Sequence record: NC_104726.1
DNA: 64,000 nt
DNA from: a phage
Reading direction: 5' to 3' (one strand)
Shown here: positions 6,044 through 33,854 of the stretch, piece after piece
Position numbering within the stretch: position 1 is the first letter of the stretch
How the letters are laid out: the number at the start of each line of letters is the position of its first letter
The notes under the pieces: model-generated
What the model was told of the DNA's origin: nothing
Databases searched by the model: none
Seen by the model: only the letters and a program-made list of their open reading frames with translations
Translations under genes and position numbers: made by a program

Positions 6044-6072
6044 TTGACTAATAGTATCAGATAATCTATAAT
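6044..6072 (+). promoter_or_regulatory. sigma70-like promoter (TTGACT-17-TATAAT)
   Basis: -35 at 6044-6049, -10 at 6067-6072. Confidence 0.55.
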
Positions 6073-23461: not shown

Positions 23462-23743
23462 ATGAAAAAGATTAACAGTAGTGAAGTAGAGTTTAAACTT
23501 GTCGGAAAAGGCACTTACTGGGAAGTTCGTCAAAAGGTATATTTGTTCGGTCTTATTCCCTACTGGTCTAAATTCTACTGGGGAGCTAACGAGTTGGGAA
23601 GATATGCCACCAAATCAATGGCACTTATTGGTATAGCAGAGTACATTGCAGCCCGAGACAGGGTTGGAACCACTTATTACTACACTGCTGACGATATTCG
23701 TAACAGTGTTTACGTCCCACAACCACCTGATGGAGACCGTTGA
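23462..23743 (+). CDS. hypothetical protein
   Basis: ATG after GGAGGGAG; in frame with track ORF 23456..23743. Confidence 0.4.
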   Translation: MKKINSSEVEFKLVGKGTYWEVRQKVYLFGLIPYWSKFYWGANELGRYATKSMALIGIAEYIAARDRVGTTYYYTADDIRNSVYVPQPPDGDR

Positions 23744-23967
23744 TGAAAGTTAAAGTTTTAGATTCAAGCTTCTATATTGGTCAGGAGCCTTTAGTAGGAA
23801 AAGTGTTTACTGCTGTCCCTAACGAAGATTACCCTGACCTTTTAAAAATAAAAGGAGCAGATCTTATTGCCGCTGGTGCATCTCAGGAATGCTTTGACAG
23901 TCAGTGGACCTATAACTTTGCCCTAGGTGAGGATGTAGAGGTAGTGGAGGACGATCATGAAGGTTAA
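23743..23967 (+). CDS. small acidic protein, MKVK...VVEE family
   Basis: MKVKVL start, KGADLIAAGA core, C-terminal VEVVED. Confidence 0.5.
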   Translation: MKVKVLDSSFYIGQEPLVGKVFTAVPNEDYPDLLKIKGADLIAAGASQECFDSQWTYNFALGEDVEVVEDDHEG

Positions 23968-24211
23968 AATTCTTGATTCTAACGTCTACTTGGGACAATC
24001 CTTCCTGAATGGAAAGGTCGTTCCTGCGGTATACTTTGAAGGGTTGCCGTGGGATGATCCTGTGCGGCAACATCACAGTTATGTAGGCCACAACGTGGTG
24101 TTTATCTTGGGATCAGACCTGATCACCGCTGGTGCACCTGAATATTATTTCGGGGAAGAGTCCTACTATGCCTTTGGGGTAGGGTCAGATGCAGATATTG
24201 TAGAGCTGTGA
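23957..24211 (+). CDS. small acidic protein, MKVK...VVEE family
   Basis: MKVKIL start, GSDLITAGA core, C-terminal DIVEL. Confidence 0.5.
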   Translation: MKVKILDSNVYLGQSFLNGKVVPAVYFEGLPWDDPVRQHHSYVGHNVVFILGSDLITAGAPEYYFGEESYYAFGVGSDADIVEL

Positions 24212-24223
24212 TGGGTAACCGTT

Positions 24224-24622
24224 GTGAAAAATAAACTGTTTAAAGTTACAATGAAAATTCGCGGGGCTTGGAGCGTAAAGCAAGGGCGTATTCCAGAATT
24301 TGAGAAAGACTTCTACGTAGTCTCCACCTCGGAGGAGGCTGCATGCTGGCAGGCTGGCTATGCCTATGCAAGAACCTGGTACGAAGGATACCAGACTGGG
24401 GGCTATGACGGAGAAATTATCAGCAAGGGTGTAGAAGAAATTAATGTGTTGACAAGTGAAAAAGTTTTTGTTATAGTGCATCCAGATTCCAGAGTGAAGC
24501 ATTACTGGAATGCCAGAACAAAAACTTGGACACCGTTTGCAGATTCTGCTACGCCACTTTTAAACCAGAAAGCTCTTGACTCTGCCCCAAGTTATGGGGT
24601 TGTTGAAGAAAAGCTAAACTGA
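24224..24622 (+). CDS. hypothetical protein (paralog of 26434..26829)
   Basis: Shares VIVHPDSRVKHYWNARTKTWTPF-like block with 26434..26829; GTG start. Confidence 0.45.
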   Translation: MKNKLFKVTMKIRGAWSVKQGRIPEFEKDFYVVSTSEEAACWQAGYAYARTWYEGYQTGGYDGEIISKGVEEINVLTSEKVFVIVHPDSRVKHYWNARTKTWTPFADSATPLLNQKALDSAPSYGVVEEKLN

Positions 24623-24936: not shown

Positions 24937-24965
24937 TTGACACAACGCTTCAGATTTAGTATCAT
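24937..24965 (+). promoter_or_regulatory. sigma70-like promoter (TTGACA-17-TATCAT)
   Basis: -35 at 24937-24942, -10 at 24960-24965, about 50 nt upstream of the HPF gene. Confidence 0.55.
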
Positions 24966-25014
24966 TGTTTTCAAAGAGAGATAGTTATTCCCTCTTCCTT
25001 AAAAGGAACACGTT

Positions 25015-25335
25015 ATGCAAATTGAAATCACTGGCAACAATGTAGAAATCACAGAAGGTATGGTATCTTTTATTTCCCGCAAAATGTCCAAGCTGGAGCG
25101 TTTACATCCCTCTGTTAACTATGCACGTGTGAGTGTAAAAGTTGAAAATGATCACCAGGAAGTTATGGCGTTCATTTTTGACAATTCTGGAAAAGAAGTT
25201 ATTGCCAAGGCTAAAGGCAGTGATGCTTACGAGGCAACTGACCGTATGGTAGATGTTGCAGCACGTCAGCTGGCTAAATGCGGTGGAAAGAAAGGTAAGG
25301 GGAAAGGCAAAGTAAAGATTGACTTTGGAGAATGA
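25015..25335 (+). CDS. hpf: ribosome hibernation promoting factor / RaiA-family protein
   Basis: MQIEITGNNVEITEGM...VKVEN...AKAKGSDAYEATDRMVDVAARQLAK closely matches bacterial HPF/YfiA (MQLNITGNNVEITEAL...AEGQDMYAAIDGLIDKLARQL); AAAGGA RBS. Confidence 0.85.
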   Translation: MQIEITGNNVEITEGMVSFISRKMSKLERLHPSVNYARVSVKVENDHQEVMAFIFDNSGKEVIAKAKGSDAYEATDRMVDVAARQLAKCGGKKGKGKGKVKIDFGE

Positions 25336-25344
25336 GGTGCTACA

Positions 25345-25446
25345 ATGGGTGTGATTAAGAAATTAGTCCCAAATGTAGAGATTGCATGCTTTGAAATTAT
25401 GTTTGCAATCGCAGTTGTAGTTAATGTGTTAGGTTACGGCTATTAA
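25345..25446 (+). CDS. small hydrophobic peptide (33 aa)
   Basis: ATG after GAGGTG; single predicted TM helix; below the track length cutoff. Confidence 0.3.
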   Translation: MGVIKKLVPNVEIACFEIMFAIAVVVNVLGYGY

Positions 25447-25472: not shown

Positions 25473-25742
25473 ATGAAAATTAAATTATTCCAAACTGAGC
25501 TGGCAGACAAAAATTGTGGACTGGTTGAAGGCATGATTGTTGAAGCACAACCAGTGGACTATATGAAGGTGGTTCGTGATGCCCTAGGTGAAGGTTTTGA
25601 TCTGATGGAGCCAGCTCTGCGAGAAGATGTTATCGAGATGGCTAAAAAGCACACACCTGAAGGTTTGGTGGTGTTTGTTGCACCGGGTAACGGAGAAGAG
25701 TTGATTGTAACTCCTGATGTGTATGAGATTGTAGAGGAATAA
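25473..25742 (+). CDS. small acidic protein, MKIK...IVEE family
   Basis: MKIKLF start, C-terminal YEIVEE; GAGGAG RBS. Confidence 0.45.
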   Translation: MKIKLFQTELADKNCGLVEGMIVEAQPVDYMKVVRDALGEGFDLMEPALREDVIEMAKKHTPEGLVVFVAPGNGEELIVTPDVYEIVEE

Positions 25743-25761: not shown

Positions 25762-25795
25762 CTTCCTCGCTAAGGAAGATTTGTAATTATTTGTG
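25762..25795 (+). terminator. terminator-like hairpin
   Basis: CTTCC-TCGCTAA-GGAAG followed by a T-rich tract. Confidence 0.4.
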
Positions 25796-25833: not shown

Positions 25834-26097
25834 ATGATTGTTTATTTTAAAACTTCAGGTGGATACCCTGATTCTCAAAGCTTGATCGGAAAAACGTGCA
25901 CAGCATACTCACCTCTTGATGAGGAGGTAAGCGATATTTTACGAAATATGTATCGGATTGACCCCCAAGAAGCCTTTGATCAAAACCTTGTATTTGTCAA
26001 GGGCTCAGATATGAAGTCTTTGGGAGCATTCCCTGAAGCAGATGATGATGCCGTTTATTCGTTCATGACTCCTTTTGAAGCTATGGTTGTTGGGTGA
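25834..26097 (+). CDS. small acidic protein, related to the MKVK family
   Basis: LVFVKGSDMKSLGA core aligns with the family motif. Confidence 0.45.
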   Translation: MIVYFKTSGGYPDSQSLIGKTCTAYSPLDEEVSDILRNMYRIDPQEAFDQNLVFVKGSDMKSLGAFPEADDDAVYSFMTPFEAMVVG

Positions 26098-26101
26098 TAA
26101 T

Positions 26102-26434
26102 ATGAAAGTACGCTTTATTGGTGAAACAATTCCTGTGCATCTCCGGTCGCCTGAGGATTCTGCAGATCTTGCATCTCAAAAGGCGAGAGGTTATGATAAG
26201 AAAGTAACCTCAACCGATGTAGTGCTTGAGGCTACTAGTCTACCTGACCCTGCTGCATTCTTTAATCATTATGGGTACTATTTCAGCAATCTGATGAATA
26301 TCGGTGAGCTTGTGTTTATTAGTGGTGGAGAAATTGTTAGCAAGCTTGGCGGCGATCCGGATATCTTTCATGAAACCTGTCCTTTTGCATTTGTGGTAGG
26401 TTCAGATGTGGAAGTTATTGAGGAGGTGCGGTAA
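26102..26434 (+). CDS. small acidic protein, MKVR...VIEE family
   Basis: MKVRFI start, C-terminal GSDVEVIEE; in frame with track ORF 26075..26434. Confidence 0.45.
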   Translation: MKVRFIGETIPVHLRSPEDSADLASQKARGYDKKVTSTDVVLEATSLPDPAAFFNHYGYYFSNLMNIGELVFISGGEIVSKLGGDPDIFHETCPFAFVVGSDVEVIEEVR

Positions 26435-26829
26435 TGGTAAGCCTATACCGTGTTGAGTATAGCTCAGATACTGTATACAACGTAAGAAGCAAAGATCGCA
26501 GCGACAGAGTGCAAGAAATGTATGTTCTTGCCGACAGTCCGTTATCTGCAGCGTTCAAGGCAGGGGCTCTTGCATCTCGTTGGAAATTTGAAGGTGGATC
26601 TTTCTATGAAGAAACCCTTGAAGATTCTGTTGTTATTTCTTCTGTAGAGGTTTCAGATGACTACGAAGGGAAAAAGTTCGTAATGCGGCACCCACACAGC
26701 AACATTGCGTACTACTGGGATGTTCTGAACAACGAGTGGACCCCAGATCTTCAGAAGGCTACTGTGCTAACACCGTTTTTGGCAGATAAGTTCCCACCAG
26801 AAGGTAATTTATCCGCACTGTTTCAGTAA
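26434..26829 (+). CDS. hypothetical protein (paralog of 24224..24622)
   Basis: Shares FVMRHPHSNIAYYWDVLNNEWTPD block. Confidence 0.45.
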   Translation: MVSLYRVEYSSDTVYNVRSKDRSDRVQEMYVLADSPLSAAFKAGALASRWKFEGGSFYEETLEDSVVISSVEVSDDYEGKKFVMRHPHSNIAYYWDVLNNEWTPDLQKATVLTPFLADKFPPEGNLSALFQ

Positions 26830-29233: not shown

Positions 29234-29259
29234 AGAGGGGGGCTTGGGCCCCTCTTTTT
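29234..29259 (+). terminator. rho-independent terminator
   Basis: AGAGGGG...CCCCTCT stem followed by TTTTACT. Confidence 0.5.
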
Positions 29260-30829: not shown

Positions 30830-31670
30830 CACACAATTAGCTGCCCGGCTAAAGTGCTGGAAGCACCTATAACACATCTTTCAACTAAATTTCCTACCAC
30901 CACAATCACTTACCTCCCACACATGACTGTTTGCTTGTTTAGTGAGCAGTCATGCCTTGACATTCTTGCCTATCCTGATAAAATTAAGTTCTTCTCTTTT
31001 CTTTTACCGAGTAATTCGGGTTTTCTGTTCTCTTCGGTTTGAAGGGGTATGGAGATACACCTGAGTGAACAGGGTGAACAACCGAACATTTGGCTATGGC
31101 ATTAGCATGGCGAAGCGGACGGGTGACGAAAGAGGGGCCGGAGGACACCAGTCACTGCCATATGATATATGGGTGATAACCTGAAGAGTCTGAATAAGTG
31201 TTTAAGTACCAGTCAGAGGAAAAGGTGAATGGTAGCCGAAGGGGGAGGGGGGTTTCTTGTATCTTTAATTTGTATATTATGTATACACTCGTAAACCAAT
31301 CTCATCTGAATCTGTTTACCACACAAAGTAGATAGGGACAAATATCACCTATTAAACTTGAATTATTTATAGAAAATACCACAACACCACTTAAGTCTTT
31401 GATTTTACACACAAATCCTACAGATATTCAACCTCTATATTTAACATATTCATAACATATTCCATACTCTACCTGTCTGATCAATTTACCCAACCACATC
31501 CTCCATATTTTCCCTGTCTGTACTACCCCTGCCCCGCCGGGAGTCCCGTCATATCTGGCTTTCCAGCAAATATCACACCCACAAATATCATTACCTGAAG
31601 AGGGTTTCATCCCATAATACCTGCCTTACCTGAAGAGCGCTTCATATACCCCGTAAATTTTTTAATTGAC

Positions 31671-31700
31671 CCCCTCCCCGCCGCCGGAGGGGTCGGCTTT
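31671..31700 (+). terminator. GC-rich hairpin, terminator-like
   Basis: CCCCTCC-CCGCCGCC-GGAGGGG followed by TCGGCTTTT. Confidence 0.3.
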
Positions 31701-32289
31701 TCCCACACAGGCCTGAAGAGTCAGCCAGAAATATCTGAACAGGTCCAGTTATACCACGATTTTGACCTGACCGACAGGAGTGCTGCCAGGCGGACGAAAT
31801 GGGAATCATTCTCATTCTTATAACAATTCTCAAATATCGAGGCAGTGAGGCAAATTAATAGGTGAGGCCGTTCACACAATGGCACAACATTTGCAACCTA
31901 TCTTGTGGGAGTGAATGAGAATACCTATCATTGTGAGAATAGTTATCATTACGGGCAATTTAACATAATACCCATTATGCGCACCACTGGCGATCCATAC
32001 AGGGATTGATAACATGAGTTACCGTTTACGCACATAACAATTATATTTCTTACTATTTGTGTGGGATATAGTTAGCAGCCAATAGATTAGATATTAACCT
32101 GCGGACTTCTGACCGTCCAGACGTCTAAACGCCCACACAACAAGGGTTATACATACACAACTGAATGTAAACAGGGCCGCAAAAATGCTACCATACCAGT
32201 TTGTAAATTTTCATGCAGCACTTGACAAAGAGGAGAAAAACTTGTCTGACACCTTATACACTTTCGACACAATAACGACTGTTATTATT

Positions 32290-32640
32290 TCATGTTTCAC
32301 TGTTCACGTATAGATTGTTCCCGCATAGACTGTTTACGCCTGGATAGTTTACACCTTAACTGTTTACACAGATAGGATAAGCCATGACATTCGTTTGCAT
32401 GAAAACAATTAGCAAGTTAACAATTAACAAGTTAATAATATATGACATAATATAAAAGCAGGGCAACTATTAGCAGATCTATAGTTGCCTTGCTTGTTAT
32501 GTCATGATTAACTGAATACAAGGCAACTATGATCTGATTAATAGATTGCAGACAAACTATCACGGGGGTGATGGTTACTGCTTTTATATTATGTCGCGAC
32601 TCCGTCGCGCCATGCCATTCGTTTGCATAGTTGCCTTATT
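32290..32640. repeat. iteron and nested-palindrome cluster in the non-coding region
   Basis: TGTTTAC-like iterons every 14-16 bp (32294-32368); GGCAACTAT/ATAGTTGCC inverted pairs; 18 bp inverted repeat 32444-32461 vs 32579-32596; direct repeat CCATTCGTTTGCAT at 32388 and 32614. Confidence 0.5.
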
Positions 32641-33242
32641 GTTACGAATAAAACAATTGCATTGTTAATGATTTCTTATCTTTCTCTTAGTCATCTAATG
32701 ATTACAGTCAGTATAGTTATGTACAGTAAACATTAGACGACTAAAGATTTCTCTGTTTATTATAACTTACCATTACAATTTCGGACTGTTTACCAAGAAT
32801 GTTGACACATAAGCTGATTTATGTTATGCAGTTTACACGAATAATTATTTTATGCAGGTATTGACTATTCCGTTATTCTATGGTTGGAATAAATACTTAG
32901 CAGACTATAGAATGGTGAGCGTACGTAAATTCTGAGATCTGGCGGCTATAGTTATACTCGATTTTTCACGTAGAACACGCTTTTGTGGTTGTGTAAGTGT
33001 ATGACTTATAAAGATTTTTAGTTGTTGACAAGACACTGAAGATATGCATCAGGTTAAATTTTGTGCAATAGCTGCATTACGTGCACTTTTGGGAGAGAAA
33101 ACGGGTAAAAATGGGCCTGCTACCACACAATGAAAGATTATGCAATAGTTATTTTCCATGTATATTTGTACAGTATGTGGAATTGATGGCTAGTCAATTA
33201 TTCCACTTGCCAGGTAGGGCCGTTTATGGTAGGAGAAGAGCA

Positions 33243-33710: not shown

Positions 33711-33854
33711 GGTGTTTTTACCTCTTAGTTAATTTTCTTACAACTTCCCTTCAAAAAGAATATAGCAAAACTGCCGATCCTTGTCAACCAAGGATAGCAT
33801 AATTTTTATGTGATCAAGGGGCTTTATTGCCCCCTGATCGTGCAACTTGTTGTA

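Follow-up and report, generated by a model that had tools for sequence, protein, structure and literature searches.

The open reading frame at positions 25015–25335 (+) of the window, which is the whole stretch of 64,000 nucleotides analysed here (NC_104726.1), encodes a 106-aa protein that is, by its sequence and predicted fold, a true member of the HPF/YfiA family of ribosome hibernation factors and stands nearer to the short HPF than to YfiA. The gene is under strong purifying selection and is clearly functional in the phage. We see an even chance that its product still binds idle ribosomes of the host in their decoding channel through weaker, salt-labile contacts, helped by a basic tail, and so parks, protects or tunes the vacant ribosome pool. 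Both the gene and its promoter were already known from the rV5 annotation and from a publication of 2019. Added here are the limits of its distribution, the purifying selection, the identity of about 42% to E. coli HPF, the failure to reach the equivalog cut-offs, an audit of the ribosome-contact residues and the lineage-specific tail.

The window comes from the rV5-like Vequintavirus Escherichia phage navn (100% identity to MN850642.1), whereby a window position equals the position in the MN850642.1 record minus 54052. The sequence of the 106-aa frame was exactly as quoted in the initial annotation of this DNA. The features of the locus are listed in Table 1.

Table 1. Features of the hpf locus and its immediate surroundings in the window.
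Feature	Position	Strand	Basis
Sigma70-type promoter TTGACA-17-TATCAT (= rV5 P144)	24937..24965	+	11/12 consensus; rV5 annotation
5′ leader	24966..25014	+	AAGGA Shine-Dalgarno at 25003-25007, 7 nt before ATG
HPF/YfiA-fold core, aa 1-89	25015..25281	+	PF02482 and AF2 model
Lys/Gly-rich tail, aa 90-106, GGKKGKGKGKVKIDFGE, with stop codon	25282..25335	+	Disorder prediction; charge
33-aa hydrophobic ORF (rV5 ORF145), MGVIKKLVPNVEIACFEIMFAIAVVVNVLGYGY	25345..25446	+	ORF list; annotated in rV5, JES2013, YN3 and Murica
89-aa ORF (rV5 ORF146, navn_114)	25473..25742	+	Annotation; syntenic in L002 at 60% identity
Weak terminator-like hairpin after ORF146	25762..25778	+	Pattern scan only; without annotation in rV5

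Family membership and predicted structure

A phage-encoded HPF/RaiA homolog had been proposed from the letters of the sequence, and the family search bore this out. The PF02482 profile (Ribosomal_S30AE) matched residues 3–89 at 56.7 bits (gathering score 23.7; E = 4.2e-15), and the NCBIfam profile TIGR00741 scored 56.8 bits against a cut-off of 40.9. The further wording that the product aligns closely with HPF/YfiA is right as regards homology and overstated as regards closeness: identity to E. coli HPF is 41–44%, and the RaiA/YfiA equivalog profile NF007654 gave only 22.8 bits, below its cut-off of 158. With the short HPF equivalog (NF007780) the score was 65.2 bits, again below the cut-off (125). 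By its profile scores, the phage protein is neither an HPF nor a RaiA equivalog, and its RefSeq name 'RaiA' is without specific support.

All of the best sequence matches with a solved structure were E. coli or Vibrio HPFs, the E. coli HPF entries 2rql, 4v8h and 6h4n being the top structural relatives by sequence (E about 1e-15), and E. coli YfiA chains were absent from the PDB sequence matches at E ≤ 0.01. With the phage protein as query, a word-indexed search recovered its own clade only; the cellular relatives came to light in an exhaustive HMMER search across 1.84 billion representatives, in which the own clade (P0004, 66% identity) was followed by an HPF from an enterobacterium (44% identity, E = 6e-10). 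Typical cellular HPFs were 30–40% identical in the same search. The protein is rather isolated in sequence space, and it is not a recent copy.

Structure prediction, which had been suggested as a check, agreed with the assignment. The AF2 model reached a mean pLDDT of 83 (about 90 across residues 1–90), its predicted elements (E2-8, H14-30, E34-44, E47-56, E61-68, H71-90) follow the canonical beta-alpha-beta-beta-beta-alpha order, and it superimposes on HPF at about 1 Å. The best Foldseek matches in the PDB were 4hei and 6h4n_x (Vibrio and E. coli HPF, rmsd 1.0–1.1 Å), and the first 36 PDB matches were HPF, YfiA or pY chains, every one. The long HPFs of the Gram-positive type carry an additional folded dimerisation domain of about 60 aa at the C-terminus. 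The phage protein has none: PF02482 is the only domain detected, and residues 91–106 are predicted to be disordered. Compared with cellular relatives, the phage protein is the more basic (pI 9.0, versus 6.5 for E. coli HPF).

Residues in contact with the ribosome

The phage protein was aligned with 138 diverse cellular representatives and with E. coli HPF and YfiA, and a list of ribosome contacts from a structural preprint (10.1101/2025.10.07.680626) was mapped onto the alignment. According to this source, K80, R83, K87 and K91 are the four basic ribosome contacts identical in E. coli HPF and YfiA; R83 contacts m4C1402, Y30 stacks on A790, and E51, T53 and residue 62 make up the m2G966 patch. 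Three of the four common basic contacts are kept in the phage protein, namely R84 (=R83), K88 (=K87) and K92 (=K91), while K80 is replaced by V (K in 70% of the cellular homologs). The ARQLxK motif of alpha-2 is intact, including Q85 and L86, and K23, K26, R29, E44, G59, D70, Y72, D76 (=D75) and D80 are likewise kept. In E. coli HPF numbering, the replaced positions comprise R17→V (R/K in 85% of the cellular homologs), Y30→L, E51→M (E in 73%), T53→F, H62→I, which is the residue 62 of the m2G966 patch, and K89→G (K/R in 89%).

Basic C-terminal tail

The lysine/glycine-rich tail described in the initial annotation exists (CGGKKGKGKGKVKIDFGE, counted from C89, with a net charge of +4 on the same count) and is predicted to be disordered, the pLDDT of residues 91–106 in the AF2 model being below 50. 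After K88 there are 18 residues in the phage protein, 8 in HPF and 26 in YfiA; the tail exceeds that of E. coli HPF by about 10 residues and falls 8 short of that of YfiA. A KG-repeat tail was found in none of the 260 cellular homologs retrieved. The corresponding tail of the divergent lineage described below has 16 aa, is also basic and has a different sequence, its length and charge being similar to those of the Vequintavirus tail. In terms of the sequences compared, the basic disordered tail is lineage-specific.

The tail is encoded by an A/G-rich run (window 25294–25312, GGTAAGGGGAAAGGCAAAG). In phage Murica (L010, 601-900), a 1-nt deletion within this run truncates the tail, and phage YN3 has a 6-nt deletion in it. 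The protein alignment of APECc02 ends at residue 89, and this phage probably has a lesion similar to that of Murica. The tail lesions of Murica, APECc02 and YN3 could result from slippage or from sequencing error.

Distribution, alleles and selection

The protein was found in 118 of 50,697 phage records, all of them Vequintavirus, with an amino acid identity of 93–100% and with an intact reading frame in every one of the 118. A version with about 64% identity in a syntenic neighbourhood is present in uncultured contigs of about 126–137 kb (L002–L004). The gene is confined to Vequintavirus and this one syntenic divergent lineage.

Within Vequintavirus, pairwise dN/dS values were 0.04–0.11, and the pooled pN/pS came to 0.068 in the core and 0.16 in the tail. 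In the comparison with the divergent lineage, synonymous divergence has reached saturation, with the protein still 63% identical and so better kept than its upstream neighbour (40%). An extra AAT codon in navn and about 20 other records gives the sequence G-N-N-V, as in E. coli HPF, at the beta1-alpha1 loop. Since both rV5 and the outgroup carry G-N-V at this place, the 106-aa allele is derived, with the cellular loop length restored.

Among the records, 18 UNVERIFIED GenBank entries named 'Campylobacter phage' (H2, H3, H11, H16, H17, L012 etc.; stated host C. jejuni) are Vequintavirus genomes with 96–100% identity to coliphages over the hpf region, which suggests mislabelling or contamination.

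Promoter, leader and transcription unit

The claim that the hpf gene has a promoter of its own was well founded: the upstream site matches the consensus at 11 of 12 positions, is conserved, belongs to an enriched class of sites and is annotated as P144 in rV5. The -35 hexamer TTGACA (24937–24942) and the -10 hexamer TATCAT (24960–24965) are separated by a 17-nt spacer, with 49 nt from the -10 hexamer to the ATG, and the promoter is placed in the 84-nt gap that runs from the upstream stop codon (24930) to the ATG. Sigma70 sites with at least 11/12 matches numbered 19 in the window (9 on the plus and 10 on the minus strand) versus 0.84 per strand in dinucleotide shuffles; with such an enrichment (19 versus about 1.7), the match is not a chance one. 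Both hexamers of the promoter are conserved throughout the genus, and the -35 hexamer with its context, AAACTGTTGACA, is invariant in the L002/L004 lineage despite a protein identity of only about 64%. From the promoter type, expression might be early, as the initial annotation had it.

A hairpin at about 24974–24996 of the leader has a perfect stem of 7–8 bp in rV5 and Aya and a weaker one in navn. It was considered as a regulatory 5′-UTR element and rejected, the folding being no better than that of shuffled sequences (z -0.5 to -1.7) and the hairpin being absent in L002 as well as weakened in navn.

ORF145 and ORF146 are probably co-transcribed with hpf. At the position of ORF145, the divergent lineage (L002) has just an 84-nt gap, too short for this ORF. 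A promoter-like site with 10/12 matches (25319–25346) overlaps the ORF145 start codon. The next terminator annotated in rV5 follows ORF158, at the equivalent of window ~29237–29253. The transcription unit probably spans ORF145–149 to P150 (window 26848) and continues to the terminator after ORF158 (window ~29237).

The product of ORF146, navn_114, was examined as a second HPF copy and rejected, having no Pfam match and no similarity to the HPF ORF. Two records, MN850642 and MN850646, call it a 'sigma 54 modulation factor', a name that seems to have been shifted from the adjacent gene, and the hpf gene itself is wrongly named 'ATP-dependent protease La Type I' in other records.

Surrounding region

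The hpf cassette is flanked by an old segmental duplication, at window 23740–24622 and 25834–26829. Family A ORFs lie at 23740–23967, 23957–24211, 25834–26097 and 26075–26434, and family B ORFs at 24224–24622 and 26434–26829, in the order A-A-B, [ORF143-hpf-ORF145-ORF146], A-A-B (blastp E 1e-14 to 9e-3). Many further small ORFs up to 28133 have similar acidic C-terminal motifs of the type Y-E-I/V-V/L-E.

On the scale of the window, the 19 near-consensus promoter sites are split strictly by strand, those on the plus strand lying at 6044–30984 and those on the minus strand at 33759–59869, as two convergent arms of small genes. The arms are separated by an ORF-poor stretch at ~31000–33100 with short direct repeats and, at 32381–32673, a perfect inverted repeat of 18 nt. 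It corresponds to the 'non-coding' region 104013–106618 of rV5 (PMC3606486). Rfam and tRNA scans of the window, including this stretch, gave no match.

Earlier work on the rV5 protein

In the rV5 RefSeq record (NC_011041), the annotation of ORF144 notes a similarity to the sigma(54) modulation protein of Klebsiella, with the Sigma70-type promoter P144 directly upstream. Kropinski et al. (2013) described 33 sigma70-like promoters in rV5, and the gene is within a block of 88 small ORFs (PMC3606486). The proteins of the rV5 group were named phage HPFs by Mizuno et al. (2019, Nat Commun), who proposed competition with the host hibernation factors (PMC6375957), and Mathieu et al. (2020) saw hpf again in five new rV5 phages (PMC6969025). 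In the literature on hibernation in Vequintavirus/Vequintavirinae, phage-encoded HPF and transcriptomes, nothing was found beyond these two papers.

When expressed from pBAD24 in E. coli, the rV5 protein was present in the crude extract (PMC6375957). It was absent from high-salt-purified 70S and 100S ribosomes, and the 100S levels of the growing cells did not change (PMC6375957). The authors offered three possible causes, namely the growth phase, a genuine loss of binding and stripping by salt, and called the result inconclusive (PMC6375957). The initial annotation had named a lack of ribosome association of the expressed protein as an observation that would speak against its reading, and this is what the only published ribosome-association experiment, made with the 97%-identical rV5 ortholog, reported (PMC6375957). 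The protein in that experiment was the 105-aa allele. Washing at high salt also takes the cellular factors HPF, YfiA and RMF off the ribosomes. Because cellular HPF and YfiA are also lost in this way, the published negative is weak evidence against binding.

Proposed role and alternative explanations

For ribosome binding, its site and affinity, the timing of expression and the physiological effect, we infer the following scheme. The gene is a vertically inherited and selectively maintained homolog of the gammaproteobacterial short hibernation-promoting factor and would be transcribed by the host RNA polymerase from the near-consensus sigma70 promoter within the rV5-like array of small non-structural genes. 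Its product would dock onto vacant 30S/70S ribosomes of the host, within their mRNA/tRNA channel, via the basic track of alpha-2 (R84, K88, K92) and the alpha-1 lysines K23 and K26, with assistance from the extra basic tail. Since several conserved contacts are lost, the binding should be weaker and salt-labile. As a result, idle ribosomes might be parked or protected during infection, or their availability adjusted, rather than the host being strictly shut off. The kept contacts, the HPF-like fold, the basic charge, the selection and the promoter count in favour of idle-ribosome binding. Counted against it are the lost conserved contacts, the low equivalog score (65 versus 125) and the negative rV5 experiment; moreover, a factor of this kind blocks the A and P sites, from which a lytic phage in need of translation gains no obvious benefit.

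The same tail and the same lost contacts might be read in another way, namely that the protein is a YfiA-like competitor acting against hibernation, which occupies the HPF/YfiA site with its tail reaching toward the RMF site. It would prevent the locking of 100S ribosomes by host RMF and HPF, the weak contacts would let initiation factors displace it, and the ribosomes of starved or stationary hosts would stay available to phage translation. We consider such a role unlikely, albeit with several points to its credit: the tail is disordered, basic and about 10 residues longer than that of E. coli HPF, it is under purifying selection, several contacts contributing to affinity are lost, and exactly such competition was proposed by Mizuno et al. 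(PMC6375957). In YfiA, the C-terminal tail blocks RMF binding (PMC7764885; 10.1101/2025.10.07.680626). However, 100S did not discernibly change when the rV5 protein was expressed, though the cells had few 100S initially (PMC6375957), the tail is unrelated to that of YfiA, with only length and charge conserved in the divergent lineage, and Murica and APECc02 carry tail-truncated alleles. Alternatively, the fold could have been kept and ribosome binding lost, the protein being repurposed for another RNA or protein target. The negative published association test (PMC6375957) would fit this, as would the replacement of six conserved surface positions, including two of the three m2G966-patch residues and the A790-stacking aromatic, and the combination of an isolated sequence (next match after the own clade at E = 6e-10) with strong purifying selection. 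Yet R84, K88, K92, K23, K26 and the ARQL motif are kept, high-salt stripping makes the negative test weak evidence, and no alternative target is indicated by any data, which leaves repurposing doubtful.

Two further explanations are extremely improbable. The GenBank label 'sigma 54 modulation factor' would make the protein a modulator of sigma-54-dependent transcription, the sole support being the historical family name, which comes from a Klebsiella ORF downstream of rpoN; all solved structures of the family are ribosome-bound, the phage promoters are of the sigma70 type, without sigma54 context, and family knowledge effectively refutes this reading. That the gene is a decaying, functionless remnant of captured host DNA might be suggested by its divergence of about 58% from the host HPF and by occasional tail frameshifts, but it is contradicted by the selection (pN/pS about 0.07–0.16), the 118 intact frames, the retention in the divergent syntenic lineage and the conserved promoter, and has next to no credit with us.

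A more specific possibility, which we rate as quite unlikely, is that the protein is a weakened, basic-tailed HPF which contends with the host's HPF, YfiA and RMF for idle ribosomes, blocks stable 100S formation or protects rRNA from nucleases, and is readily displaced at initiation. Were this the case, these gut coliphages could replicate in starved or stationary-phase hosts, and the NN/N loop polymorphism and the tail would tune the affinity. Manipulation of ribosome hibernation by a phage would be a distinct strategy of host takeover, with a bearing on lytic phages that face slow-growing or dormant hosts, e.g., in the gut or during phage therapy. The main use of the residue audit, the analysis of the tail and the difference between the alleles lies in the design of a better binding experiment.

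Comparison with known systems

The closest counterpart is rV5 ORF144/gp139 (YP_002003641, ABI79209), which is the same gene, 97% identical, syntenic and with the same annotated promoter P144. The navn protein differs from it by the one-codon insertion in navn and two substitutions, H22R and A34V.

Of the cellular factors, the E. coli short HPF (YhbH; 2rql, 4v8h, 6h4n) resembles the phage protein in fold (rmsd about 1.1–1.5 Å), in the first 16 residues, 12 of which are identical, and in the common ARQLxK motif of alpha-2. Short HPF promotes the RMF-dependent step from 90S to 100S dimers. The phage protein differs by a one-residue insertion at D56 and by its phage context instead of the rpoN operon. 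E. coli YfiA/RaiA (protein Y) belongs to the same superfamily, with the same fold and a C-terminal extension past the length of HPF. In contrast to the YfiA tail, which ends in an acidic stretch, the phage tail is basic, Gly-rich and of unrelated sequence.

PF02482 homologs also occur in large myoviruses or jumbo phages, as in Cronobacter phage GAP32 and Xanthomonas phage XaC1 (PHROG 8990), and GAP32 was listed by Mizuno et al. as an HPF-carrying phage (PMC6375957). A tblastn search with the navn protein (E ≤ 1e-3) did not pick up these phages. The Vequintavirus proteins have a PHROG to themselves, 12469 (E = 1e-69), versus 1e-07 to PHROG 8990. The HPF-like genes of other phages were apparently acquired separately.
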